This document shows positions 3,413 through 61,497 of a DNA stretch of 64,000 nt, one piece after another. The notes beneath the pieces were generated by a model, which was not told where the DNA came from, did not search any database, and worked only from the letters and a program-made list of their open reading frames with translations. Where the stretch lies: sequence record PZ229304.1; one strand, given 5' to 3'. Source of the stretch: a phage. A program made the position numbers and the translations under genes. Numbering within the stretch: position 1 is the stretch's first letter; each line of letters opens with the position of its first letter.

Positions 3413-6187
3413 TTAGTTTACCAGTTTATTTATATCTGGTAAAAGATTTATTTCACCTAAAAAATCACCTTCACCTTCCTCTAACCAACTCTCATATGCT
3501 TGTGCATGATTATAGTTACCATCAAAAGAATCTGCAACAAATTTTTCTACAGTTTTTCGAGATGTGTCAGCGCCAAATACACCAAGTTTAATACCATTGA
3601 TCGGTAAAGTGGTACTTGTTGGTACTTTCTCTGTTGCAACACGGTTGATATCTATAATCTCCTGTACGGTTGTGTTCCATTGTAAGCATTTAACACAACG
3701 GGTATGCGCTACATACAGTAGGTTTCGCTCTGCCTCTTCCAGTCCTACCCATTCACCAGTCTTTTTATCATAGTTGGAAGGAAAATCATTAGCAACAATA
3801 ACCTGATCCCACTCCAAACCTTTAGACTTGTGTGCTGTAGTCAGTGTGACTTTTGCTGTAGGAGAATTTCTATGCGTTCTAAGTGTATGTGCTATAGTGT
3901 TTGCCTTACCAGAAACTACGATGTTTAACAAGCGTTTAGCATCTGGATCAGCCTCTGCACACTCAACAAATTCATTCCAGTCTGCGTAAGGTAATACAGT
4001 TTCATGTTTTACTTTCTCAATATCTCCTCTCCGAAGAGCATTAACACTATCTACCATAGAGATAAAATCCCTGGTATCTACGTTAATAATAATTTCTTCC
4101 CCATCTGCAATACGATCCATTGCCTCCATAAGCAAGGTTAAATTCTTGCGAAAGATGATAGTGTAAGGTTTTGTATAGTCTACAACATCTGATTTGTAGC
4201 TACCTACTACAGTATCAAAGCCTTTACCAACCAAAGGGTGACGCAAAGGTTCTTTATCGCTTAAAATCATATTGGCAATGTTTGCCACTTTGGGGCCAAA
4301 ACGGAAGCAAGCAGTTAATGGAAGCTCTGCTCCATACTTAGCTGTTTCAATCATCATATTAGAGCTACCTCTAAATTGATAAATGCAGTTGTGGCTAAGA
4401 ATTTCATTACCAAAGAAGTTAGCAGTATCCTCTACTTCAATATCATAATAGATACCTTCACTATCTACAATGTCCACAATTTCTTCTGCCGTTACAGTAT
4501 CACCATCTTTTACCAACACAGACATGCCTTTAAACAAACCCGCCGCCGGAATTAAAGTATATTTGGCGGTGTTCACAGAGGACATGCATTCTTTTAAAGA
4601 TGCAAACGGCACTATTTCAAGGATCTTTTGTGCAAAACTCAATGCTTCACGATAAGAATTGAAATATTTACGTACACGGTAACGACCTTCCAACTTAGCA
4701 ACACTTACGCTTACACCTGCTTCAATGAGTGAAGCATAGATTGACATTTCACTTTCTGTCCACTCAAAACTAACTTGTGTTCCTTTACAACCTTGTGCTC
4801 GCAAAGTCACTGTTAACATTTTTCTTTCATCTACTGCACAATTGATGCTGTGCCAATGTGGATAAGCAAAATGATAATCTTTATCCTCTAAAAGTTTAAA
4901 ACCGTTTTGTCCGAATTGTTCAAAAATGTTATTGATCCTTTCTTGATTAATGCCGCGTGAACTTGCTTCAAATACACAAGTAGGAATGCCATATTGTAAA
5001 CTGTATGCCATTTCTTTTTCCATAGCAGCTTCACGGTTTTCAACAATATCCAACACCCATAATTTCTGTGCTTTTTCAGAACGTGTACGTTGCCCCAGTT
5101 TAGAAAAACCTTCTTTATCATCGAATTTGTTAGTGATCCCTACTCGGAAACCTAAATCTTTCCTCCACATTAGGTATACCACCATCTGATCATCTTTCAG
5201 AACATAGGATGAAGCCCAAATACGATGGTTATGTGTCATATCTAAAGTTTTACCTGTGGCAGTAATAATATTCCTACCTTTTGTACGTGTAGATAAAGTC
5301 TTATTTGTTACTTTTCTAAATGTAATTTTACCATTAGAATAAGACTCTACCTTATCACCGATTTGTAGGTCTTTCATTGTAACCTGACCATTCTCGGTAT
5401 TAAGTACCGTGTTTTCCGACACACATTGGAATTCATCGCCCACTACCACAATTTGTTTTGCAGATTTAGCATTTCGCAGAATAGACAAGAATGCAGGGTT
5501 AACATCCTGGAATTCATCACCAAAAATAATGTCATAACCAAGGTCAGCACCTGATAATTCAAACAATTTTACATAGGTGTCATGCGTCATCAAAGTATCT
5601 GTGTTAGGATCGATGCGCTCTCGCCACAATTGTTTTGCATACTTAACTACTTCTGTAATTAGTTTGTGTTCGTTAATACCTTTTCTTTTAATATCTGCAA
5701 GATGTACACTAGGAAAATGTTTACGGCTGATAAAAGGATCATCCGAAAATTCAAACTTACCTACGGTTTGCTTGATCATTAAACCAATCATAGCACGAGT
5801 TAACAGTGTTTTCCCTCGTTTATCAATAAGATTATTAATCTTAAATTTCTTTGCTATCTCGCTACCTGTACCTGCAACGTTAACATACTGTCCTTCTGGT
5901 CGTGACAGTTTTGCACGTAAACGATGATCCAGGAATTGATAGCAAATAGAATGCAATGTACGGCATTCTACATTTAGTGGCATCTTACGTCGTGCTTCTT
6001 CTGCCATGCTTTTATTGAAAGCTAAGTAAAGAATGCGATCTTCTGTACTGTTAGCCAGCAAATAAAGTGTTGACGTTTTGCCTGATCCAGATTTAGCTTG
6101 GATAGTTAAAAAGCGATGGTCTGGAAAAGCCTCCTTAATAGCTGTTTGCTCTTCTGTTGGAGTGAAGCTCAACTCTTTCTTAGCCAT
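3413..6187 (-). CDS. UvrD/PcrA-like SF1 DNA helicase interrupted by an in-frame intein
   Basis: Walker A (AKSGSGKTST), motif II (GDEFQDVNP), motif III split as GDEFQ / C-IYQFRGS, motif V (TAHKSKGLEWDQVIV), motif VI (LLYVAHTRC). Start trimmed from TTG at 6226 to ATG at 6187 with RBS. Confidence 0.8.
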   Translation of the reverse strand: MAKKELSFTPTEEQTAIKEAFPDHRFLTIQAKSGSGKTSTLYLLANSTEDRILYLAFNKSMAEEARRKMPLNVECRTLHSICYQFLDHRLRAKLSRPEGQYVNVAGTGSEIAKKFKINNLIDKRGKTLLTRAMIGLMIKQTVGKFEFSDDPFISRKHFPSVHLADIKRKGINEHKLITEVVKYAKQLWRERIDPNTDTLMTHDTYVKLFELSGADLGYDIIFGDEFQDVNPAFLSILRNAKSAKQIVVVGDEFQCVSENTVLNTENGQVTMKDLQIGDKVESYSNGKITFRKVTNKTLSTRTKGRNIITATGKTLDMTHNHRIWASSYVLKDDQMVVYLMWRKDLGFRVGITNKFDDKEGFSKLGQRTRSEKAQKLWVLDIVENREAAMEKEMAYSLQYGIPTCVFEASSRGINQERINNIFEQFGQNGFKLLEDKDYHFAYPHWHSINCAVDERKMLTVTLRAQGCKGTQVSFEWTESEMSIYASLIEAGVSVSVAKLEGRYRVRKYFNSYREALSFAQKILEIVPFASLKECMSSVNTAKYTLIPAAGLFKGMSVLVKDGDTVTAEEIVDIVDSEGIYYDIEVEDTANFFGNEILSHNCIYQFRGSSNMMIETAKYGAELPLTACFRFGPKVANIANMILSDKEPLRHPLVGKGFDTVVGSYKSDVVDYTKPYTIIFRKNLTLLMEAMDRIADGEEIIINVDTRDFISMVDSVNALRRGDIEKVKHETVLPYADWNEFVECAEADPDAKRLLNIVVSGKANTIAHTLRTHRNSPTAKVTLTTAHKSKGLEWDQVIVANDFPSNYDKKTGEWVGLEEAERNLLYVAHTRCVKCLQWNTTVQEIIDINRVATEKVPTSTTLPINGIKLGVFGADTSRKTVEKFVADSFDGNYNHAQAYESWLEEGEGDFLGEINLLPDINKLVN
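4388..5425 (-). mobile_element. intein (346 aa) inside helicase motif III; central domain may be a homing endonuclease of unidentified type
   Basis: N-terminal Cys (codon aca at 5423-5425 on plus, TGT on minus), block B-like TxxH (MTHNH), C-terminal YDIEVEDTANFFGNEILSHN followed by +1 Cys (4385-4387); removing it restores the canonical motif III GDEFQ-CIYQFRG. Confidence 0.7.
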
Positions 6188-11286: not shown

Positions 11287-11640
11287 TTACATCCACAGAT
11301 TATGAAAATACTTAGCGAACAAAATGCGACCTTCTAAACGATCTTGCCGCTGTTTTTCATTAACTTCTTCTGGTGGAGTTGAGTCCTTAAAAGAAGACTC
11401 CATTTTTTCAAGAATTTCTAACCAGTGTTCTGCTGCTCGTTCTTCCATATAAGGTAGATAGTCACCTTTAGCGTGTGGGTACATCCGACGAAGTAACCCA
11501 CTAGGAATTTTAACATTGTTTGTGGCTATCACTTTTGCACGATACGCAGAAAGTGCGTTGTAGATCAGTTTACTTAGTGTCACATCCAGATCAAGAAGAT
11601 CACTCTCTTCAAATTGAATTTCATCGTGTACAATTTTCAT
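11287..11640 (-). CDS. hypothetical protein
   Basis: 117-aa track ORF. Confidence 0.45.
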   Translation of the reverse strand: MKIVHDEIQFEESDLLDLDVTLSKLIYNALSAYRAKVIATNNVKIPSGLLRRMYPHAKGDYLPYMEERAAEHWLEILEKMESSFKDSTPPEEVNEKQRQDRLEGRILFAKYFHNLWM

Positions 11641-11924
11641 CGTGCCTTCTCCCGATCTGCATCTAATTTCAACAAGAAAGCTGTATACTCTTCCGAACCT
11701 TGGTGTAAAAACATGTGATAAGAGCTTACCAGTTTCTTCGTTGTCGTATAACGTTCCATTTCCCCAACAACACCTCCACCTAGTGTGTAGAGCACAATAC
11801 CTTCAACTCCAACATAGGTTACTACTTCAACCAAATCTGTGTTATCCCAATAGTAGTTAGGTGACACAATAAGATCGCCCACTGCCAGTTTAATGTTTGC
11901 TACTTCATCTTGTGAATAGTACAT
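11637..11924 (-). CDS. hypothetical protein
   Basis: 95-aa track ORF, 4-nt overlap with downstream gene. Confidence 0.45.
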   Translation of the reverse strand: MYYSQDEVANIKLAVGDLIVSPNYYWDNTDLVEVVTYVGVEGIVLYTLGGGVVGEMERYTTTKKLVSSYHMFLHQGSEEYTAFLLKLDADREKAR

Positions 11925-11936
11925 TTTGTTCTCCTC

Positions 11937-12227
11937 TCACATTAAGACACGTTTTGTATTGATGGGGGCATTGTCGAACATGTTTATCACTTTGTCAAGT
12001 TTGTGTATTAACTCGTTCGTAATGTTCCACTCTTTGTATGATCTCCATTGCTTCTTATTCTCACCTACCTGGTGTAAAACTTTTATTGGTGCATTCAAAC
12101 GTACATTGCGTTCTTTGTCCTCTTCAAAAGAGGCTAACCATTTTTCGTTATGTCCATGAACAGCAATAATAATGCCAAAACCATCAAAAGTTTCTGTAAT
12201 ATTCTTAGTTGCTAGTGTGATGTTCAT
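11937..12227 (-). CDS. hypothetical protein
   Basis: 96-aa track ORF; first gene of the minus block, divergent from the plus island. Confidence 0.45.
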   Translation of the reverse strand: MNITLATKNITETFDGFGIIIAVHGHNEKWLASFEEDKERNVRLNAPIKVLHQVGENKKQWRSYKEWNITNELIHKLDKVINMFDNAPINTKRVLM

Positions 12228-12346
12228 ATCTAACCTCTTTTGTTACGATGCACACAGAGTACCAGAAATTAATTTCAGATCAAGTATTGACATACTGTTT
12301 TATTGTGCTAATCTTAATGCATACACAAATGAGAGGAGATAAACGA

Positions 12347-12898
12347 ATGCAAAACATCGATCTTACTTGGATAGAAGCCAAAGAAGCAATGTTAAAAGGT
12401 AAACGCGTTAAACATAAATACTTTTGCGAAGGAGAATGGTTTGAAATGCGTAACCGATCCCTTATAGATGAAAAAGGGAATGACATGCAACAATGGTTCA
12501 AAAATGAAATTTGGCAGGGAACAGGTTGGTCTGTAGTTGAAGAGCAGCCTAGCTCAAGCGCACTGTTTAGCCCTATTATGTATCGCGTTATCGGTGCTTT
12601 AGTTGTTGATCACGGGATTGCAGTGGAAAAAGAATGCTGGGAAGAGGTATCTTTTTTCAACCTGGCTTCTTATGCAAAAAGCCATATGCACTTGTTTGAA
12701 GAAGGGGATGAATTTGTTCTTCGTATGCGATATGGCAAAGAATTCAGATTACCACTTGATAACGATGTAGACACTGTTGTAAAATGGTTAGCAGAGCATT
12801 ACGCTTACGATGCAATTTGTGGTCGCAGCTTCGGCAACGAACGCTGGGACATGATTTGTGAAAAATATGATTTTGAGCCGGAGTACGGAGTTTTATAA
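12347..12898 (+). CDS. DUF2829/Tad2-like N-terminal domain fused to an uncharacterised C-terminal domain
   Basis: Trimmed to ATG 12347 (GAGAGGAG RBS). N-terminus MQNIDLTWIEAKEAMLKGKRVKHKYF..GEWFEM fits the DUF2829 pattern (L.W..A..A...GK.V) by recollection, not by alignment. Confidence 0.4.
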   Translation: MQNIDLTWIEAKEAMLKGKRVKHKYFCEGEWFEMRNRSLIDEKGNDMQQWFKNEIWQGTGWSVVEEQPSSSALFSPIMYRVIGALVVDHGIAVEKECWEEVSFFNLASYAKSHMHLFEEGDEFVLRMRYGKEFRLPLDNDVDTVVKWLAEHYAYDAICGRSFGNERWDMICEKYDFEPEYGVL

Positions 12899-13357: not shown

Positions 13358-13795
13358 ATGAGTAAAACAAACGCAATCGCAGATAAAGCAACGGATGTAC
13401 TTCTGAACATGGTTAACGTCACTATTCAAACAATGAGTGATGTTGTAGAGTTTGGAAAACAACAAATTCCAGAAGTAATCCATCAATTATTAGTGTGGAA
13501 AGCAGTATCCGCAGGTTTATGGCAACTTTTTAGTATTTGCTTTATGTTTATTACTTTTATTGCTGTGCGGAACCTCGTAAAAGCAATTAAAGATAAAGAA
13601 TGCCTGTGGTCACGAGATCGCTATGGTGAAGTATCTCCTTTACCTATTGTTGGCCTTGTTGTCTGTGCTTTCTTTTTCTTTTTAGGATTTGTTATTTTCT
13701 TTTCGAATTTTGATTGGCTAAAAATCATTATTGCACCAAAAGTGTATCTGATTGAATTTGCTGCTGATTTAATTCGTTCATCTCAACAAAAATAA
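13358..13795 (+). CDS. membrane protein (predicted TM helices)
   Basis: Hydrophobic segments AVSAGLWQLFSICFMFITFIAV and IVGLVVCAFFFFLGFVIFF. Confidence 0.5.
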   Translation: MSKTNAIADKATDVLLNMVNVTIQTMSDVVEFGKQQIPEVIHQLLVWKAVSAGLWQLFSICFMFITFIAVRNLVKAIKDKECLWSRDRYGEVSPLPIVGLVVCAFFFFLGFVIFFSNFDWLKIIIAPKVYLIEFAADLIRSSQQK

Positions 13796-13806
13796 AAGGG
13801 GTTAAA

Positions 13807-14934
13807 ATGAAATACACGATTTATGGTGATATTGTAAGTGTAAATAAAGATATGGGCGTGGAATCTAACTATCTTCCACCTGGATTCTATACTGTTAGTC
13901 GTGATCCCCTTGGCAATTACTTTTTAAGCCGTGGTAATCTAACAGGTGTACCGGATGTTCTGTATGGTGAAACAGAAAAACGAGCAAATCACGTTATTCG
14001 TACATTCCATCGCCGGAGTGCACAAGGTAAAAATACAGGCTTGCTTCTGACAGGAACTAAGGGCAGTGGTAAAACTATGTTAGCCAAACTCATTAGTCGT
14101 GACCTTGTAGAAGAAGGTATTCCAACTATTATGGTTACTCAAGCCTACAGTGATGCTAATTTCATTGAACTTATTAGTAAGATCACCGACAAAGCAGTGA
14201 TTATTTTTGACGAATTTGATAAAGTATATGAGAAGAAACAAGATCAAGAAGCACTTCTCACTTTGTTAGATGGTACTGGCAGTGGTAATAAACTGTTTAT
14301 TCTAACTAAAAACAGTGGCTTTATCTCTGAATTCTTTCTAAATCGTCCTAGTCGTGTGTTTTATAATTTTAATTATGATAAAATCTCACTAGAAACTATG
14401 ATTGACTATTTAGATAAAAACCTGGATAACAAAGCACACTTGGATAATTTCCAAAGGCTTTGGGATGTAAGTTTAGAGTTGTCCTTTGATGTGATCCAAG
14501 GTATAGTAGAAGAACTTAATTTCTACCCTGATTTATCCTTTAAAGAATGCATCTCTATGATGGGCGTTTCTTTGGGTGGTGGTAATAAGTGGGATATCAG
14601 CAGCGTTGTTATTAATGGGAAACTTCAGAAAGTTAGCTGGGTATCTAGTTGGCATAACTTCACACCTGCAATCTTTTTAGGTGGCTCGTGCACACTAGAC
14701 GTGTACTTGTCATCTCCAAGTGATGCAGACTCTAAAGAAGCCCTTGCTAATAGCTCTTACGTGGTTTTTGATGATGAAGGAGATGCTCGAATTCCATTGA
14801 ATGCGACAAAAATGAAAGCAGATCTTATTACAGGCGGTAAAATCGTTGTGTTTAGTGATGATCCAGAAGATTCTTTCCGTATTGTTCTGGAACCAACTAT
14901 CACCAATGGTGCAACTTTGGCAAGTGTGTTTTAA
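13807..14934 (+). CDS. AAA+-type ATPase with uncharacterised C-terminal domain
   Basis: Walker A GTKGSGKTMLAKL and Walker B VIIFDEFDK. Confidence 0.6.
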   Translation: MKYTIYGDIVSVNKDMGVESNYLPPGFYTVSRDPLGNYFLSRGNLTGVPDVLYGETEKRANHVIRTFHRRSAQGKNTGLLLTGTKGSGKTMLAKLISRDLVEEGIPTIMVTQAYSDANFIELISKITDKAVIIFDEFDKVYEKKQDQEALLTLLDGTGSGNKLFILTKNSGFISEFFLNRPSRVFYNFNYDKISLETMIDYLDKNLDNKAHLDNFQRLWDVSLELSFDVIQGIVEELNFYPDLSFKECISMMGVSLGGGNKWDISSVVINGKLQKVSWVSSWHNFTPAIFLGGSCTLDVYLSSPSDADSKEALANSSYVVFDDEGDARIPLNATKMKADLITGGKIVVFSDDPEDSFRIVLEPTITNGATLASVF

Positions 14935-16754: not shown

Positions 16755-16967
16755 TATTTTGAAAATTTTTATTTTTATAAAAAGGGGTGTGGGTTTCATG
16801 TACGGAAATCCACCCTCTGAATAATATATCCAGAGTAAATATTATTCTGTACTCTGTTAATAAAGTATTTAATTTGTTTGTTGGACTATGGTATCTGATC
16901 TTTAAAAGGCATACTATCTCTTAACTACTACTTATAACAGAACAGTAAAATCATTTTTATAAAAAGG

Positions 16968-17170
16968 ACAAAATTATTTAAAGTTTTTACAGATTTTTGG
17001 GTACAAATTTTGAAAATGAAAAGTTCAAGTTTGGTCAAAATTATTTAAAGTTTTTGTATGTATTTCTATCCAGATTTTGAAAATGAAAACTTCAATTTTT
17101 TAAAAATTCCCCAGTTTATTTAAAGTTTTTTTGCCTTTTTCCGTAGAAAAATCAAAAATGAAAAGTTCAA
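16968..17170. repeat. three tandem direct repeats of about 67-72 bp (TATTTAAAGTTTTT ... TTTTGAAAATGAAAAGTTCAA), iteron-like
   Basis: Read directly in non-coding DNA. Confidence 0.6.
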
Positions 17171-17196
17171 TTTCGTGTTTTTATAGGTGTGCGTAT

Positions 17197-17306
17197 GATA
17201 ATCATTCTCATTTGTAAATGAGAATCATTATCATTTAAGTATGTAAGTGATAATCATTCTCATTAAGAGAATGAGAATCATTAGCAAATGAGAATTTTTC
17301 TCATTT
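17197..17306. promoter_or_regulatory. cluster of Fur-box-like palindromes (GATAATCATTCTCATT x2, AATGAGAATCATTATC)
   Basis: AAATGAGAATCATTATC matches the Fur consensus GATAATGATAATCATTATC at about 16/19 by hand. Confidence 0.45.
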
Positions 17307-17567
17307 AGAGAATAACGCGCAGGGGCGGTGTTTGTCTCGCGCTCCCGTGTCCCCTCGCCATACAATAAGAATAGCATAACCAACAACAAAAGCAAGCGAT
17401 TATTTTTATCTTTACATTTCTTTACAAATTTATTTTAGACGAGCTACCGGCGATCAACCTTCCAACCAGTGCCCCCTGGTATGTTAGCCCCGCCTTTACG
17501 CCGTGGGGGTGGCGCTTCCTCTTCTGTATGTAAAACAGTATAAGCCCGATCCCTGGGCTTGTCAAGA

Positions 17568-18286: not shown

Positions 18287-18559
18287 ATGGCATCATATAG
18301 CGCATCAATGATCGTAGCTGGCATCACTGGTAAACCTATGCGCGGTGGCGGATCTTTCGCTAACATCAATATTGATGGACGTTTATCCCTGGACGCAGCG
18401 ATCACCGTGGCACGGGAAACGTTTAAAAAAGAATGTAATTTCAATAAACAAGATTATCTCGGTTTCGCTATTGAAAAAACCGCGCGATTTGTGGATTATA
18501 AAAGCCCGAAAATGATCGACACTACACTAAAAGCGCAAGATGTAGCGTTTTTGCTTTAA
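18287..18559 (+). CDS. hypothetical protein (cassette gene)
   Basis: Preceded by TTGACA promoter, CACATAGGGCGGCA..TGCCGCT hairpin and AGAGAG RBS. Confidence 0.5.
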   Translation: MASYSASMIVAGITGKPMRGGGSFANINIDGRLSLDAAITVARETFKKECNFNKQDYLGFAIEKTARFVDYKSPKMIDTTLKAQDVAFLL

Positions 18560-27833: not shown

Positions 27834-27907
27834 AATGATAATCATTCTTATTTATAGCTGATTATTTATGCAATAAACTGCATAATGCAATAATGATAAT
27901 CATTCTT
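27834..27907. promoter_or_regulatory. two Fur-box-like sites (AATGATAATCATTCTTA and AATAATGATAATCATTCTT)
   Basis: Second site about 16/19 to the Fur consensus by hand. Confidence 0.45.
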
Positions 27908-27909
27908 AA

Positions 27910-28255
27910 CTTATGACCATCTAACCTATAAAATAATAAGTTATCTAACTAAATTAAAACTAATTATCTTACTTTTATTTATAACTTACTGTTACTATCT
28001 CATTGATAACCTTATATTAAACAACAATAACTAATATAAATCATTACTAAGCTAAATATAATCTATCTAACCTTTAAAACTATAACTATAATCTATTGAA
28101 TTATTGCACAAAGTAACTATTAAATCGTTAGTAACATTACTAAATAATTAATATCCTATCTATTTATGATCTAATCTTTACATTCCTATCTATTACCTAA
28201 ATAATCATTTCATATAGTAATCATTTCATACAATAACTATAACAAGAAATATAAT
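27910..28255. other. G-poor, AT-rich non-coding tract with short reiterated motifs (CTAAC, CTATC, TAACT)
   Basis: Strong strand asymmetry visible by eye; no ORF. Confidence 0.5.
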
Positions 28256-28440: not shown

Positions 28441-28766
28441 AGCTAATGTTTAGAACATTGGCTATAATATAAGCTAAATCATAAGCTATGCAATAATAAA
28501 CATGGTGAATAATGACATTGATGATCATAATGCGCCACCTTCCAGGGGGCGCTATGTGAACACAAAGAAATCTTTCTTGTCAAGAAAATATTACTACTAT
28601 TGCGCAAAATTATTTATATCTGAATAGATGATTTTTTATGCTATTGCCCCCTTGATTATTACTATTTGTTGCCCTAACTATTGTCATTTGTTGAGCCTAC
28701 TTTCTTAAAAGCGCAATAAATCAGAATTATCTTGATTTTTAGTCGGTTTTATAGTACAGAAAGTAT

Positions 28767-28785
28767 GCAAATGATAATCATTATC
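28767..28785. promoter_or_regulatory. near-consensus Fur-box-like site GCAAATGATAATCATTATC
   Basis: 17/19 identity to GATAATGATAATCATTATC by hand. Confidence 0.5.
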
Positions 28786-28951
28786 AGCTATCTTCCACGG
28801 GTGGCACTATTTCACGCCAGATCATTTCATTTGGCAAGGTGTATATAGATGTTTAGAAATGCCAAGCCATTGATTTACTTAGAATTTATCTGTTTTGTTG
28901 TGAGTAGTGCCTTTCTTGCTCAGAAAATAATCAAAAGTCTTATAAGTCATT

Positions 28952-28983
28952 GAATGATAATGCAAATGATAATTATTCTCATT
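28952..28983. promoter_or_regulatory. degenerate Fur-box-like repeats
   Basis: GAATGATAATGCAAATGATAATTATTCTCATT. Confidence 0.35.
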
Positions 28984-29428
28984 GATATTTGAGGGGGACG
29001 GTCGGCAGAAATCGGGGGGCGCTGAAAATCGCGTTAAGCACCTCTCGCAAGCGAGCAGTATTTTGCGGCAAGTTATTGATATTATTGACTTTACGCTTAA
29101 GAAAAGGGGGCGTGTCGAAATAAATCGGGTATACCGGAAAATTTTTGTGGCATAGATATTTATTTGTCTATATTATGTACAAAGGGGTGTGTTAAAAATA
29201 ATAGGTATATATAGAATAATTGATAGGGAAATCCTATACTAAATCCTTCATTAATGATGTTCCTATGTTGCTGTTCTTGTAATAGATGAAAAGACGCTAT
29301 ATGATGTGTGGCATGAAACGTAAACTTATAAGATGCAAATAATGCTTGCATTGAATAGAAATGTCTATACACTGTGTTTCATAAGATATGCAATATCGCG
29401 CATAACAAACTACTAATGAGAGGTGTAA

Positions 29429-29887
29429 ATGAAAACTGTATCTTTGTATCTTGCTAACACGGAGCGTGTACATAATCTTGTAAAAGAATGCGGTGTGAGT
29501 GTTCAATTTAACATAGGAAAGCCTTCCGTGGTGACAGGCAGTGAGATGTGTGTTATTGATTTCCTCAATGAATATTTTCGTGGAAAACCTATTGCTCGTC
29601 ACTTCATTCGAGAAATGCGAGATGTACAACAGGATTATGAATTCTACCCAGAAATTTGTGAACGCTATGAAACTATTCTTAGTTCTGTAGAAGATCCAGA
29701 TACCAGTGAAACAGGTGTTTCCCACTTACTGTGGATGTTGAATGAAATTCAGGATGGGTGTAATGGTATGTCTGAAACCAAACGCCATCGTTGGCTAGGC
29801 TATATTCAGGGTGTTATGGTTATGAAAAACCTTATTACAGTGAGTGATGAACGTAACGCTACACGCCCCGTCTTTAATGGAGCATAA
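29429..29887 (+). CDS. hypothetical protein
   Basis: 152-aa track ORF; GAGAGG RBS; first gene of the AT-rich plus block. Confidence 0.5.
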   Translation: MKTVSLYLANTERVHNLVKECGVSVQFNIGKPSVVTGSEMCVIDFLNEYFRGKPIARHFIREMRDVQQDYEFYPEICERYETILSSVEDPDTSETGVSHLLWMLNEIQDGCNGMSETKRHRWLGYIQGVMVMKNLITVSDERNATRPVFNGA

Positions 29888-29888
29888 C

Positions 29889-30104
29889 ATGAAAAGCATT
29901 CAGGTGTGTATTGAAAATAATTGTGGTTATCTTGGGTTGACACATGTTGCTTTCCCTCTTATGTTAGATGCTGATATCGCTTACAGCGGAGTTGCTTATG
30001 TGTCATTCAAGACAATGAGCCAAGTACCTGGCTGGAAGTGGGAAGTAGTTGATGTTGTTGAAGGAGAAGATTATGTTTTCCTTCCACACGAATATACTGT
30101 TTAA
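29889..30104 (+). CDS. hypothetical protein
   Basis: Trimmed to ATG 29889 (GGAG RBS). Confidence 0.4.
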   Translation: MKSIQVCIENNCGYLGLTHVAFPLMLDADIAYSGVAYVSFKTMSQVPGWKWEVVDVVEGEDYVFLPHEYTV

Positions 30105-30119
30105 AGAGAGGAAAAGAAG

Positions 30120-47637: not shown

Positions 47638-48210
47638 TTAATGTGTTAATGAAACTGCGTAGCTAAACACAGGTTCAGATATTACATCGGCTACAGTAAT
47701 AAAAACGTCTTCGTCTTGAGTTGTTTCTACACGACATACAGTTACACCATTCACCACGAATTCAACGCAATGTGGAATATCTTCACAAACGAAGGTAGTG
47801 TAAGTAACACCCAAAGCATCATACAAAGATTTAACAGTGTTTGCAAGTGCCGCAGTTTCTTCTTTTTCTGAGACAATGAATGCTGTAACAACAAGATTGT
47901 TTGCATAGTTTAGACTGTCCTCTATAGCCAATGATTTACAAGGTAGTAATGCAAAATATTTACCTGGTTTAATCAGACCTGCTTCCCATTGATTCAAAAT
48001 TGCTTGGGATGGTTTAGTAATATAAAACAGATTTTCACTTGGGTTATCAATATTACTTCTGGCGATACAACGTGAAGGATTATTAATATCAAACACATGA
48101 TCAAAATCTACACAAACTGGTAAACTGAAAGGTGTGAATTTTTTACCTAATAATCCTACTGCTGACAATATGTTTACTGTGCTTATCTTCCCGTTAAAAG
48201 CTAAACGCAT
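47638..48210 (-). CDS. hypothetical protein
   Basis: 190-aa track ORF. Confidence 0.45.
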   Translation of the reverse strand: MRLAFNGKISTVNILSAVGLLGKKFTPFSLPVCVDFDHVFDINNPSRCIARSNIDNPSENLFYITKPSQAILNQWEAGLIKPGKYFALLPCKSLAIEDSLNYANNLVVTAFIVSEKEETAALANTVKSLYDALGVTYTTFVCEDIPHCVEFVVNGVTVCRVETTQDEDVFITVADVISEPVFSYAVSLTH

Positions 48211-48221
48211 ATTTAACTCCT

Positions 48222-48425
48222 TTAACTAGCAACCGTAACTTCCGAACTTTCTTCTTTCGTACTGTCTACGATATGCCTGGTGGCAATATACGAGACTTGC
48301 CAGTTACCATCTGGTGTAGTCTCAATAAGTACCCTATCTACTTCGAGAAAATGCAAAAATTCAACCATCGCTCGCTTCGATAGGAATTGTTTTTTAACAG
48401 TCTCCTCAAAAGATTGAACTGCCAT
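48222..48425 (-). CDS. hypothetical protein
   Basis: 67-aa track ORF. Confidence 0.4.
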   Translation of the reverse strand: MAVQSFEETVKKQFLSKRAMVEFLHFLEVDRVLIETTPDGNWQVSYIATRHIVDSTKEESSEVTVAS

Positions 48426-48434
48426 GTTTCCTCC

Positions 48435-49097
48435 TTATTTAATATTCAATTTTGCACAAAGACGTTGTACCGCTTTGGCATCGAACAAACTCCCACGAAT
48501 AGTTCTCTTTCCTGATTCATTCAGATGCTTTGCAATCGTCATATATGGCGTTTTACAAGCTCTGTATGCAACTAAAGAATCTTTTAAAGAAAGCGCAAAC
48601 TCTTTTGAGCGTTTTGCTTCTTCCGTTTTCGTATAATCTGTTCTTTTGTATTTAGGGTTTGCTGCACCAAGAAGCGTTCCCTTCGCTTTTGCTACCTTAA
48701 GGCTCTTCTTAACACGATCAGATATTGCACGAGCCTCTTCTTCTGCCAGAACTGCTAAAATATTTATTATCATATTTTCAGCGGAGGGCATAGTTGCTAT
48801 TCGTACATTAATCATCTCTAACAAGGTTGCAACAGAAGCTGTGTTACGTCCAAGACGGTCAACCTTAGCAACAACAAGTGTAGCACCTGTTTCTTTGCAA
48901 AGATTAACAGCTTTTACAAGCTCTCTACGTTGCTTCCAATCGCCTTTACCAGAATAAAACTCTGCAAAGCTACCTACAATAGTATAATTTTCTTGTGAAT
49001 CCAGGAAGCGTTGAATATCTGCTTCCTGTGATTCTATACCATACTGGTTGCCTTGTTGTTTCTTCTTAGAAAGTCGATGATATAGTACAAACTTCAT
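48435..49097 (-). CDS. serine recombinase (resolvase/invertase family)
   Basis: N-terminal YHRLSKKKQ (candidate catalytic Ser), LVVAKVDRLGRN, AEEEARAISDRVKKSLKVAKAKG; about 220 aa, so the small resolvase/invertase class. Confidence 0.65.
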   Translation of the reverse strand: MKFVLYHRLSKKKQQGNQYGIESQEADIQRFLDSQENYTIVGSFAEFYSGKGDWKQRRELVKAVNLCKETGATLVVAKVDRLGRNTASVATLLEMINVRIATMPSAENMIINILAVLAEEEARAISDRVKKSLKVAKAKGTLLGAANPKYKRTDYTKTEEAKRSKEFALSLKDSLVAYRACKTPYMTIAKHLNESGKRTIRGSLFDAKAVQRLCAKLNIK

Positions 49098-49154
49098 AAT
49101 ACCCTCCTGTTCTGTTACAGGAAGTATGCACTACCTTAATGTTAAAGTCAACAG

Positions 49155-49358
49155 TTAAGTAGTGGTAATATCATCCTCTTGAATACCAGGGTCAACTTCT
49201 GCAAAGATAGCCTCTACAGGAATTTCTTCACCTGCTATTCTAGAAAGAAGCACTGAACCAATAGCTTTTGCGTGTTCTTCGGATTCCGCATAAACATTAG
49301 TTCCTGTGTCTTTTTTCTTAGTTTCGTTAAAATATACCAGATAGTAATTGTATGCCAT
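49155..49358 (-). CDS. hypothetical protein
   Basis: 67-aa track ORF. Confidence 0.4.
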   Translation of the reverse strand: MAYNYYLVYFNETKKKDTGTNVYAESEEHAKAIGSVLLSRIAGEEIPVEAIFAEVDPGIQEDDITTT

Positions 49359-57601: not shown

Positions 57602-57788
57602 ACTTGGCTACACCATTAACTATAATGTGACCGCAAGACATAACTCCTAGCCAATGATCACCATTCTTTTTTAAACGTTTACCGTAAACATCACAGAAAC
57701 CATTCTGTAATTCGGAAGCCTCATAAGAGGCTCCCTTTTCGAAAACGTCTTTGAAGTCAGAAATTAATCCAACACAAAGTAGTTTCAT
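57570..57788 (-). CDS. hypothetical protein
   Basis: 72-aa track ORF. Confidence 0.4.
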   Translation of the reverse strand: MKLLCVGLISDFKDVFEKGASYEASELQNGFCDVYGKRLKKNGDHWLGVMSCGHIIVNGVAKFEIIKGEKDD

Positions 57789-58873: not shown

Positions 58874-59195
58874 TTAAATCCTCCACAATATCGCACATTG
58901 CTTTTATTGTATCAATGTGTTCTCTCTCCATACCATGCTCTATGTAAGCCTTCTCTAATGCGTCCCATACACTCTTTGTGAGTAGTACAGTAACCTCTCC
59001 CTCATACCTTGCCCTGGTTAAAGCATACCAGGTAGCTATGGGATCATTGGAAGCCCATATTTCAACACTGGAAAATTGAAAACCTGCAATATAATTGCAA
59101 CACCAATCGAATGTAAAATCTTTACTATCTACCAGTGTATAATTTCCCCAACGCCTTTGTGGTGTTGCTCCAGGTAATACAACTAATGTAGGCAT
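58860..59195 (-). CDS. hypothetical protein
   Basis: Trimmed to ATG 59195 (AGGAGGA RBS). Confidence 0.4.
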   Translation of the reverse strand: MPTLVVLPGATPQRRWGNYTLVDSKDFTFDWCCNYIAGFQFSSVEIWASNDPIATWYALTRARYEGEVTVLLTKSVWDALEKAYIEHGMEREHIDTIKAMCDIVEDLNGSN

Positions 59196-59204
59196 ATTCC
59201 TCCT

Positions 59205-59232
59205 TAAGAAAGGGGGACAAAGCCCCCTAGTT
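59205..59232 (-). terminator. intrinsic terminator or attenuator between nrdA and downstream genes
   Basis: AGGGGGACAAAGCCCCCT hairpin with T-run on the minus strand, immediately after the nrdA stop. Confidence 0.5.
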
Positions 59233-59235
59233 TCA

Positions 59236-61497
59236 TTACATCTTACAAGCCTCACAACCGGATTCTTCATCCTCTTGAGCGAGTGAGGTTGCCGATTTTG
59301 TTCTACTATTTAGATAGTACAAAGATTTACCACCAAGTTTTGCAAACTGAAGGATATATTGCATTTCTGATTTAATGGATAAACGACCACCTTCCATCTT
59401 AGAGTAGTCAATCCACTTATCACATGATGCACCTTGATCTAAGAATTTAGTCAACAGGCCATATGCTTCAGCCATATCTTTATCTGGCGTATCCCAAGCC
59501 GATTGGTAAATATCTTTTAGTTTATCGTAATCTGGCACAATAAACAGAACATTACCTTTTTGGCTTTGTTTATAAACTATAGTATCTCGTACAGGATACA
59601 CAGAGTTAGTCGTATTACTTACAAGACTACTGGACTCATTTGGAGCAATAGCTGCTAATACGCTATTTCGGATACCACCTTGTGCAATGATATCTTGTCG
59701 TAAACCTTCCCAATCCATTTTAAGTTTAAAATTGCCGATATCGTCTACAGCTTTAGCGTAGGTATCAATAGGCAACCATCCTTCAGGCCACTTGGTTTTA
59801 TGCATCCATTCTGCATTACCTTTCTCTTTTGCCAAACGAAGAGAAGCTCTTGCTAACCAGTAATAATGTCTTTCTGCTAATTCGTGAATTAGTTTTTTGC
59901 CGTAAGGATCTGAGTAAGTAACAAAATTACTTGCCAGATAATGTGCAAGGTTTGTAATACCTACGCCGATAGACCTACGTGCTTTAGCAGTGATTTCGTT
60001 ATGTTTAAACGGATACTGCATTGTTTCAATAACATTATCAATAGTCAGAACGGTATAATATGCAACATCTTCATATTCTTCTGGTGTAACACGACCAGCT
60101 ACAATAGAAGACAGGAAGCATAATGCCAATTCTTGATCTTCTGTATTCTCACCTGTGAAAAGATCAGTCATATTGTGAAATGCTTTCGTAGGTAAGAAAA
60201 TTTCTTGGCACAAGTTTGACTGGTAAATAACATCCTTAAACGGAGTATGCTTATTAGCATTATCCGCAAAGAACATATAAATACGTCCTGTCTCTGCTCT
60301 TTGTGTAATAATTTCTGCCAGAAGATCTCGTGCTTTTACAAACTTCTTCTTAATTCGTTTGCGACTAACTTTTTCATATACTTCTTCAAACTCTTCCTCG
60401 CTTTTATAAAGCGCCTCATAGAGTTCTGGTGCTTCGTCATAACTGACTAGCATCCAATCTTTACCTTTTGCTGCACGGCGCAGGAAAGCATTGTTTACTA
60501 CAATAGAGTAATCAAGTTTATCTACTCGTTTTTCACTAACAGTAGTTGGATTTTTCAAACGTACCAGATCTTCAAAATCAGGTTCTAATATTGTAAACGT
60601 TACTGTTGCACTTCCACCACGGCTTGCTTGTTTTGATGCTCCAACACTTGTTTCCATCCATTTCAGATATGGTAAAAGACCACCGTGAACGATACGGTTG
60701 TTCTTAACACCTTGTCCTGTAGCACGGGTTTGGAGGTTAACACCAATACCTGCATTATTCAATGTATATTCATGAGCAAGATAGTTAGCAATTGCTAAAG
60801 ATTCTGCTGTATCATCTGCTCTAAACAGACAACAAGAAGCACTACCTTTAATCTTAGTACGCAAAGTTGTTAAATAAGGCGATGGTAAATTAATCTTAAG
60901 ATCACTTACGTAGGTATATAGACGTTTAATGTCTTCTACTCTGCGATCTTTTGGTTGAATTTCCATTACCTTCATTGCTACACCAATGAATAAAAACTGT
61001 GGTGATTCAAAAACAACATCATTGATCGCATCTTTCACAAGATACTTATCAACCATCTGGCGCAGTACGGAATAACCATAAGTTAGGTTTTTATCGTGAT
61101 TGACAATTTTACCAATCTCAATAATTTCTTCTTCTGTATAATCCATTTTTCCCCAATAGCCTTTACTTACAGACATATTGTAGAAATCCAGGAGGGAGGG
61201 GATATTGTGATATCCCCCATGAGCCTGTTTATAAATCATACCAAGAAGTAACCGACCTGCCATATCACTATATGCCTGATCTTTCTTATCAATACATGCT
61301 GCTATCATAGCTTTATGTAAATCACGAGTAGGCACACCGTCGTAACAACGTTTAACAGCTTCGAGTTCAATTTCAGACCAATTTAATTTACCAGCAGCAA
61401 ACTCTGACCATTTACGAAGTTTTTCTGGATTAAATTCTTCTTTCTTGCCGTTTGTTTTTGTTACATAACGGATAGATTTGCTTAGATACTGAGTCAC
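59236..61497 (-). CDS. nrdA: ribonucleotide reductase class Ia alpha subunit
   Basis: 753-aa ORF with NLCQEI and C-terminal CEACK Cys pair; adjacent to nrdB and glutaredoxin. Confidence 0.85.
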   Translation of the reverse strand: MTQYLSKSIRYVTKTNGKKEEFNPEKLRKWSEFAAGKLNWSEIELEAVKRCYDGVPTRDLHKAMIAACIDKKDQAYSDMAGRLLLGMIYKQAHGGYHNIPSLLDFYNMSVSKGYWGKMDYTEEEIIEIGKIVNHDKNLTYGYSVLRQMVDKYLVKDAINDVVFESPQFLFIGVAMKVMEIQPKDRRVEDIKRLYTYVSDLKINLPSPYLTTLRTKIKGSASCCLFRADDTAESLAIANYLAHEYTLNNAGIGVNLQTRATGQGVKNNRIVHGGLLPYLKWMETSVGASKQASRGGSATVTFTILEPDFEDLVRLKNPTTVSEKRVDKLDYSIVVNNAFLRRAAKGKDWMLVSYDEAPELYEALYKSEEEFEEVYEKVSRKRIKKKFVKARDLLAEIITQRAETGRIYMFFADNANKHTPFKDVIYQSNLCQEIFLPTKAFHNMTDLFTGENTEDQELALCFLSSIVAGRVTPEEYEDVAYYTVLTIDNVIETMQYPFKHNEITAKARRSIGVGITNLAHYLASNFVTYSDPYGKKLIHELAERHYYWLARASLRLAKEKGNAEWMHKTKWPEGWLPIDTYAKAVDDIGNFKLKMDWEGLRQDIIAQGGIRNSVLAAIAPNESSSLVSNTTNSVYPVRDTIVYKQSQKGNVLFIVPDYDKLKDIYQSAWDTPDKDMAEAYGLLTKFLDQGASCDKWIDYSKMEGGRLSIKSEMQYILQFAKLGGKSLYYLNSRTKSATSLAQEDEESGCEACKM

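Follow-up and report, generated by a model that had tools for sequence, protein, structure and literature searches.

The subject of this report is a serine recombinase gene at positions 48435–49097 (minus strand) of a 64,000-nucleotide stretch of phage DNA (sequence record PZ229304.1), the whole of which is referred to below as the window. The gene is already known as an annotation: in public records it is gp053 of Escherichia phage phi92 (gene_053, YP_009012384), with the RefSeq product name 'DNA invertase'. The phi92 protein and its Justusliebigvirus orthologues represent the same gene between the same neighbours (99–100% identity in 56 records), with no difference from the window copy, whereas in Phapecoctavirus the cassette that carries the orthologue lies at another locus and in the opposite orientation. 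No experimental work on gp053 or on the orthologues of these two genera was found in the literature. What we add beyond the annotation is the build of the protein, the structure of its cassette, the relocation of this cassette between sister genera and the evidence against the invertase label. Our tentative reading is that the enzyme may carry out resolvase-type recombination (deletion or resolution) at one cognate site per phage genome copy, and not inversion.

Among the characterised systems, the small serine resolvases (Tn3/gamma-delta TnpR, Sin, beta and Tn552 Bin) are similar to gp053 in the catalytic domain, the alpha-E helix and the size of about 200 amino acids (aa); Tn552 Bin and Tn3/gamma-delta are its best sequence matches in the PDB (E from 1e-5 to 4e-4), and the fold of the Sin catalytic domain is matched likewise. 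We propose that gp053, like these resolvases, deletes DNA between direct repeats and has its site close by. However, the resolvases possess an HTH_7 domain and an array of res sub-sites, neither of which is a property of gp053, and the identity is about 25%. HTH_7 is the DNA-binding domain of Hin and Gin as well as of the Tn3 and Sin resolvases. The invertases Hin, Gin, Cin and Pin also share the serine catalytic domain, are phage-borne in Mu and P1, and lend their name to the public annotation. However, their identity of about 30% is limited to residues ~44–160, and neither their HTH_7, nor their inverted pair of 26-bp sites, nor an invertible segment was found for gp053.

The large serine recombinases (Bxb1, phiC31, TP901-1 and CcrB) are similar in another way, through the fold of Bxb1, the profile of CcrB and a C-terminal motif that corresponds, in most members of the family, to the start of PF07508. 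They are 450–700 aa long, in contrast to 220 aa for gp053, which lacks the rest of the recombinase domain. Their zinc ribbon and coiled coil control the directionality of attP x attB recombination. They come with att sites and temperate phages, whereas the phage that carries gp053 has no att sites and is not temperate. Finally, in P1 Cre/loxP, a phage recombinase acts on one site per genome and can circularise the terminally redundant infecting DNA and resolve dimers. Cre/loxP is a functional analogue only, since Cre is a tyrosine recombinase, P1 is temperate, and no lox-like site was found here.

The open reading frame (ORF) in the window starts with ATG, encodes 220 aa and belongs to the phi92 gp053/YP_009012384 class. 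A preliminary description of the window, made from the sequence alone, had proposed a small serine recombinase at this place, and this holds: the coordinates are exact, Pfam PF00239 (Resolvase) is matched over residues 4–141 (E = 8.4e-22; 78.3 bits, cut-off 23.3), and the catalytic residues are intact. The PHROG 125 profile, named 'DNA invertase', is matched with E = 1.3e-31. The active-site motifs are Y6-H-R8-L-S10 and V-D80-R81-L82-G83-R84-N; both the catalytic serine (S10) and the DRLGR motif (D80-R81-L82-G83-R84), the loss of which the description had named as grounds for dropping its proposal, are present on alignment. Across a family alignment of 30 homologues (25–88% identity), no substitution occurs at R57, R81, R84, E121 or R128, and conservation reaches 90% or more at Y6, R8, S10 and D80. 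The AlphaFold model derived from this alignment, with a mean predicted local distance difference test score (pLDDT) of 87, shows a catalytic alpha/beta core, a long helix at residues 108–138 and a poorly predicted linker. The catalytic domain with the long alpha-E helix comprises residues 1–141 (48675–49097, minus strand), as delimited by Pfam, the alignment, the AlphaFold model and Foldseek. Searched against the PDB with Foldseek, the model matches the catalytic domains of Sin, TP901-1, phiC31 and Bxb1; the sequence matches in the PDB are weak (E from 1e-5 to 8e-4; Tn552 Bin, Tn3/gamma-delta resolvases and Gin) and confined to the catalytic domain and the alpha-E helix. The ORF is thereby confirmed as a genuine, intact serine recombinase gene, and its product is predicted to be an active small serine recombinase.

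The C-terminal part, residues 158–216 (48450–48626, minus strand), is predicted from AlphaFold, Pfam, NCBIfam and Foldseek to be a four-helix DNA-binding domain, with helices at 158–170, 172–180, 185–194 and 207–216 in the model and with the motif IAxxLNxxGxxTxxG(x6-7)VxRL. HTH_7 was not matched by any of the 30 family members, among the best 25 of the 37 matched Pfam families (E ≤ 1). In contrast, 21/30 homologues match PF07508 ('Recombinase'), the domain with which large serine recombinases bind DNA, with a best E of 3.3e-7; these matches cover the first part of the domain only, and the window protein itself has no PF07508 match. The top-ranked PDB structure in Foldseek is the large serine integrase Bxb1 (9iu2_A, 257 aligned columns), above the Sin catalytic domains. 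The best NCBIfam profile is CcrB, aligned to residues 4–212, followed by the Mpi-family invertase and YneB, all far below their cut-offs. The protein stops at residue 220 after the four C-terminal helices, with no zinc ribbon or coiled coil. Its domain order is not that of IS607-type serine transposases either: these have the DNA-binding domain in front of the catalytic one, whereas here the catalytic serine is residue 10 and the DNA-binding domain is C-terminal. The build is best described as a resolvase-type catalytic domain with alpha-E, followed by only the first helical part of the DNA-binding region of large serine recombinases, and it is a widespread, uncharacterised one. Of the earlier assignment to the 'resolvase/invertase type', the catalytically intact serine recombinase therefore stands, whereas the classical build does not, given the lack of HTH_7, the PF07508 matches in the family and the rank of Bxb1.

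The window belongs to Justusliebigvirus and represents a virulent, phi92-like myovirus. The 4 kb surrounding the gene share 99.4% identity with phi92 (NC_023693), and 56 phage records match this stretch with at least 95%. A search of 5,426 complete E. coli genomes for DNA matching the gene region gave none, a result that fits a strictly lytic phage with no host-borne copy and agrees with the preliminary description, in which the phage was called virulent. Phage-therapy screens take recombinase genes as signs of a temperate lifestyle; here such a gene is carried by strictly lytic phages. The occurrence of the gene in these phages and the absence of a copy from the E. coli genomes also make the label 'DNA invertase' probably misleading.

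One explanation, which follows this label, is that the enzyme is an invertase that flips a phage segment, e.g., a promoter or a host-range gene, between two inverted sites. It would agree with the PHROG 125 and RefSeq names, the weak profile match to the Mpi-family invertase and the catalytic-domain matches to Gin and Cin. However, HTH_7 is found in no family member, and the similarity to Gin, Cin and Hin of some 30% is restricted to the catalytic domain. Repeat searches revealed no gix-, hix- or res-like pairs or repeats flanking the gene or elsewhere in the window, in agreement with the earlier remark that no flanking crossover sites were seen by eye. The genome-wide search for paired res- or gix-like repeats that the preliminary description suggested was run as a self-comparison of one whole 148-kb genome, and it likewise gave no gix-, hix- or res-like pair, only palindromic terminators, promoter–stem-loop cassettes, palindromes resembling Fur boxes and one 24-nt inverted pair. 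This pair (18412–18435 and 57662–57685, 23/24 identical, also present in J. alia) was considered and rejected as a pair of crossover sites. Its arms lie in different reading frames of two unrelated ORFs and only a single arm is kept in Phapecoctavirus, for which reasons we regard it as a chance match. It is the sole inverted pair of note in the 148-kb genome, and its use by an invertase would destroy both genes.

Comparison between genomes is similarly unfavourable to inversion. The window, phi92 and J. alia are collinear, with no inversions among the few genomes compared. Between the genera, a segment of about 1 kb (window ~11287–12556; J. alia 74594–75579; OQ031492 133387–134882) is inverted in situ; it holds divergent promoters and two small genes, and one breakpoint falls within a 216-aa ORF (12248–12898) that corresponds to two opposite-strand ORFs in Phapecoctavirus. 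Such an inversion, which splits a gene, would suit an invertase; however, no inverted repeats border it in either genome, and it was rejected as a product of this recombinase. Inverted pairs near the homologues in three related phages, including one (L014) beside a tailspike gene, were at noise level only, which is not convincing. A count of inversions over deposited genomes, made with 25-kb megablast chunks, was discarded because partial matches to other genera inflate the number of 'places'. For the Fis-dependent recombinational enhancer of such invertases, which has no reliable sequence signature, no patch of constrained synonymous sites was seen within the gene. The suggestion that the enzyme inverts a DNA segment elsewhere in the genome thus finds no support in the one whole genome searched or in the genomes compared, and neither does the label 'DNA invertase', as both HTH_7 and an inverted site pair were looked for and neither was found. 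We consider an invertase very unlikely.

The surroundings of the gene point to a self-contained, one-gene cassette with its own promoter. A promoter scan places a sigma-70-type promoter at 49123–49151 (minus strand), with TTGACT as the −35 element (49151–49146), a 17-nt spacer and CATACT as the −10 element (49128–49123). A TTGACx promoter with the same 17-nt spacing lies 55–90 bp upstream of the homologue in 8/9 compared loci; the exception (L012) has a doubtful called start codon. In the leader, a predicted hairpin (CUUCCUGU / ACAGGAGG, 6-nt loop; 49103–49124, minus strand) folds with −11.8 kcal/mol (z = −2.06). Its 3′ arm is the Shine–Dalgarno (SD) sequence AGGAGGG (49108–49102), and its 5′ arm overlaps the −10 element and the discriminator. 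The cassette's own transcript would lack the 5′ arm, whereas read-through transcripts would contain both arms, suggesting that only the cassette's own transcripts are translated and that the hairpin hides the ribosome-binding site (RBS) in read-through transcripts. Hairpins of different sequence that cover the SD are predicted in the relatives L016 (−13.3 kcal/mol, z = −2.9) and L015 (z about 0, alone not significant), and RNA folding found none in the phAPEC8 leader. That the gene is an early one, as described previously, is suggested by the sigma-70-type promoter. With a promoter for the host RNA polymerase and a hairpin that would conceal the RBS, the recombinase is probably an early product whose level is kept low and under tight control.

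The cassette is tightly packed. The non-coding flanks of the ORF are 57 bp upstream and 9 bp downstream, and the RBS of the next gene begins immediately past the recombinase stop codon. The upstream neighbour is the phi92 gp054 homologue (67 aa; 49155–49358, minus strand) and the downstream neighbour is the gp052 homologue (67 aa; 48222–48425, minus strand). The gene following these, gp051 of phi92 (window 47638–48210, 190 aa), is named 'histidyl tRNA synthetase' in RefSeq, while its own note reads 'hypothetical protein'; given the size of the protein, the former name looks doubtful.

The wider family offers a clue to function. Full-length homologues with 32–40% identity are numerous: bacterial genomes contain more than 570 such loci, and IMG/VR has more than 590. 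In bacterial genomes, a tyrosine integrase (DUF6538 + Phage_integrase) lies within 4 kb at 26/80 sampled loci, which indicates islands or prophages. On IMG/VR contigs, the most frequent neighbours are a YqaJ-type exonuclease (34/80), PDDEXK/Hjc-like nucleases (23/80 and 13/80) and a Toprim-AAA primase (13/80), which together constitute the replication/recombination module. On a 7.3-kb Phaeobacter plasmid, a full-length homologue adjoins rep and parA, where multimer-resolution systems are usually found, and on a 6.4-kb Synechococcus plasmid a perfect 16-bp inverted repeat stands directly upstream of the homologue.

These neighbourhoods, together with the requirement for only one site, make a resolvase-type role the best available explanation. 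Among the options raised in the preliminary description, the resolution of concatemers or multimers is the one that the location of the homologues would favour most. Under this model, the promoter and the RBS-covering hairpin would give early, low-level recombinase, which would act on one cognate site per phage genome copy. It could serve the circularisation of the infecting, terminally repeated genome through its terminal repeats; alternatively, like the res systems of plasmids and the Cre/lox of P1, it could convert multimeric replication intermediates into unit circles. Resolution is compatible with the lack of repeats, since one site per assembled genome suffices. A self-contained module of site plus gene would also explain why the locus has changed and the gene has nevertheless been retained (see below). 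In a paper on a phapecoctavirus, the authors speculate that the recombinase keeps 'concatemers as single genome' (PMC10282059).

We hold the resolvase-type reading with low confidence, somewhat short of even, since the searches revealed no site and the replication intermediates on which it depends are presumed ones. Enzymatic activity, expression timing and the resolvase direction are what we infer from the features above, and several points weigh against the reading. The cognate site was found neither in the cassette, nor in the window, nor in the one 148-kb genome. A multi-subsite res (about 90–120 bp) is absent beside the gene, and 57 bp of upstream sequence would not accommodate a res of the Tn3 or Sin type. 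Significant upstream dyads were obtained in only 2/8 lineages tested (L011 and L016) and none in phAPEC8; they can also be explained as RNA hairpins that cover the SD. Upstream of the window gene there is a single weak dyad, and no patch of synonymous conservation, as expected of a cis-element, was seen within the coding sequence. The model presupposes circular intermediates in these phages, whereas concatemers are the packaging substrate, and resolution late in infection could be harmful. The gene is probably absent from rV5- and PVP-SE1-like relatives, judging from annotation and match counts, which would make it accessory and not essential to the genome type. Finally, the context of homologues with about 35% identity is weak as functional evidence.

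A possible site has been sought in the ends of the genome as well. The 343-bp direct terminal repeat of phi92 maps to window 28694–29036, which places the recombinase, part of a leftward block of small genes, at a distance of about 19.5 kb from the left physical end. The 16-mer TGCATACTTYCTGTA / TGCATACTTYCTGTAM occurs only at 49115–49130, in the recombinase promoter, and at 28754–28769, in the terminal repeat. As a candidate site it is a weak lead, and three properties count against it: it is a short match (14/15), it has no dyad symmetry and it includes a −10 hexamer. Moreover, the parallel test in Phapecoctavirus gave a match in the terminal region together with an equally good one inside a coding gene. 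In a more specific form of the resolvase-type reading, which we think improbable, the recombinase, together with a site concealed in either the cassette's promoter/leader or the terminal repeat, would form a portable resolution module, with which large virulent phages with terminal repeats would circularise or monomerise their DNA early in infection in a Cre/lox-like manner. The family, with its catalytic domain and truncated DNA-binding domain of the large-serine-recombinase type, would then represent a third architectural class of serine recombinases, so far uncharacterised, whose sites are short and simple. Resolution or circularisation, if true, would reveal the way in which these large lytic phages deal with the ends of their DNA, and would supply a compact short-site recombinase for the genome-engineering toolbox.

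The position of the cassette differs between sister genera. In a whole-genome comparison at the protein level, J. alia and a phapecoctavirus are collinear, but the recombinase occupies a different locus in each and is oppositely oriented. The gp054 and gp052 homologues flank it in Justusliebigvirus, whereas in Phapecoctavirus they are direct neighbours; the short spacer between them contains a terminator-like hairpin and measures 45 bp in phAPEC8. The Phapecoctavirus recombinase, likewise a promoter and an ORF placed between genes, is found about 16 kb from this empty site on the opposite strand; the RefSeq annotation of phAPEC8 agrees on both the empty gp054/gp052 site and the relocated gene. 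The indel between the genera consists of promoter and ORF and nothing more, and no terminal repeats or target duplication are visible at the cassette borders. Within 6–10 kb around the gene, phi92 and phAPEC8 have hardly any further recognisably common ORF. The phi92-type locus is kept in relatives of 60–88% identity, and the gene order differs again in relatives of 50–52% identity. The recombinase thus behaves as a portable cassette that switched locus between sister genera.

The chief rival to a resolvase-type role follows from this mobility, namely that the gene is selfish or hitch-hiking and is kept by its own spread, akin to the free-standing homing endonucleases of T4-like phages. In favour are the precise placing of a one-gene cassette, which brings its own promoter, between conserved genes, the empty site in a sister genus with the copy some 16 kb away in opposite orientation in an otherwise collinear genome, the further change of gene order in the more distant relatives and the bacterial homologues on integrase-bearing islands. 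The SD-covering hairpin that overlaps the promoter offers a further parallel: in T4, the expression of endonuclease genes, both in introns and free-standing, is limited by a similar arrangement of hairpin and promoter. However, the gene shows no presence/absence variation (56/56 Justusliebigvirus records and essentially all phapecoctaviruses), in contrast to the HNH gene gp074, a homing-type endonuclease gene that phi92 possesses and the window lacks. It also stays at a fixed locus through relatives with saturated synonymous sites, with a ratio of nonsynonymous to synonymous substitution rates (dN/dS) of ~0.06. Moreover, the visible terminal repeats or target duplication of a mobile gene are lacking, there is no known mechanism by which a lone serine recombinase would copy its own gene, and the single documented relocation can be explained by ordinary rearrangement in a plastic early region. 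We therefore judge a selfish gene to be unlikely, though the most serious competitor.

The distribution of the gene bears on the remaining explanations. By tblastn, all 56 of the 56 Justusliebigvirus records carry the recombinase with 99–100% protein identity (100% in many), Klebsiella phage FKP3 has a homologue with 78% identity, and the phapecoctaviruses (~80 by a rough count), essentially all of which have the gene, show about 57%, e.g., phAPEC8 gp216 (~57%). Vibrio and Shewanella phages of 130–150 kb match with 33–50% identity, and very few Salmonella records are among the matches. In the phi92 annotation, homologues from rV5 and PVP-SE1 are listed for genes next to gp053 but not for gp053 itself. 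Comparisons with relatives of 78% and 82% protein identity gave dN/dS values of 0.057 and 0.076, synonymous sites being close to saturation or past it; dN is 0.10–0.22 in the catalytic half and 0.23–0.52 in the C-terminal domain, the catalytic domain being the most constrained. The gene is under purifying selection and is retained across the subfamily. The earlier idea of a remnant of a mobile element is thus only partly upheld: a portable cassette that has changed locus fits it, whereas decay does not, since dN/dS of ~0.06–0.08 and subfamily-wide retention make a decayed remnant unlikely. An apparent pseudogene in phage Schickermooser (L019, MK373788 10710–12652) was set aside, because deletions of 1–5 nt strike the neighbouring genes too and the frameshifts are probably sequencing errors.

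The same data speak to the idea that the protein is a domesticated DNA-binding regulator that has lost recombination. The missing site pair and the dyad symmetry in or near the gene's own promoter in some lineages would suit a regulator. However, the catalytic residues are invariant or nearly so across 25–100% identity and the catalytic domain is the most constrained part, which would be unexpected if DNA binding alone mattered; we regard a regulator as highly improbable. A different proposal is that the enzyme serves takeover or counter-defence by acting on foreign DNA (that of the host chromosome, of a resident prophage or satellite, or of a competing phage). Its early-type promoter, its place among early genes about 19.5 kb from the left physical end and the lack of a cognate site in the phage genome could all be accommodated, and recombinases are reported to have been drawn into phage–satellite conflicts in ICP1/PLE (PMC6002521, PMC9638900). 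However, neither PADLOC nor any other defence-related match was obtained for the recombinase, the family is kept in phages of Escherichia, Klebsiella, Vibrio and Shewanella, and some members are plasmid-borne, where a self-directed role is more natural. We consider a foreign target quite unlikely and retain resolution at a single phage site as the preferred explanation.

Several other features of the window were noted. Palindromes of the type AATGATAATCATTaTCATT are clustered at 17194–17310, 27834–27911 and 28512–28996, with a further one at 4870–4888. If up to 3 mismatches are allowed, there are 13 strand-matches at 7 loci, compared with 0.06 expected. They match the 7-1-7 consensus of the Fur box. 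Several are located within or beside the terminal repeat of 343 bp, and a possible leftward promoter is overlapped by one of them. They could reflect iron/Fur control of early phage promoters, or they could be binding sites of a phage protein. Directly upstream of four closely spaced Fur-like palindromes, three tandem AT-rich repeats of ~70 bp (16953–17173) lie in a region of 31% GC near a change in GC skew, which is possibly a replication origin or a regulatory hub. Between 18200 and 26020, a repeated cassette of a TTGACA promoter, ...CACATAGGGCGG and the hairpin GGCGGGAAATGGTTTCCCGCC precedes successive small plus-strand genes in 5–8 copies, and it resembles the promoter–stem-loop units of T4-type phages.

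Small differences of presence and absence within the genus were seen at window 58890–59269, 11637–11924 and 29253–30106; the window lacks the phi92 HNH endonuclease gene gp074, and a 95-aa ORF of the window is absent from J. alia. The region beside the terminal repeat differs among phi92, J. alia and the window. Outside the window, J. alia (OZ035770) carries at 60542–61297 an additional, inverted paralogue of the gene at window ~13792–14778, which represents an insertion in Justusliebigvirus relative to Phapecoctavirus.

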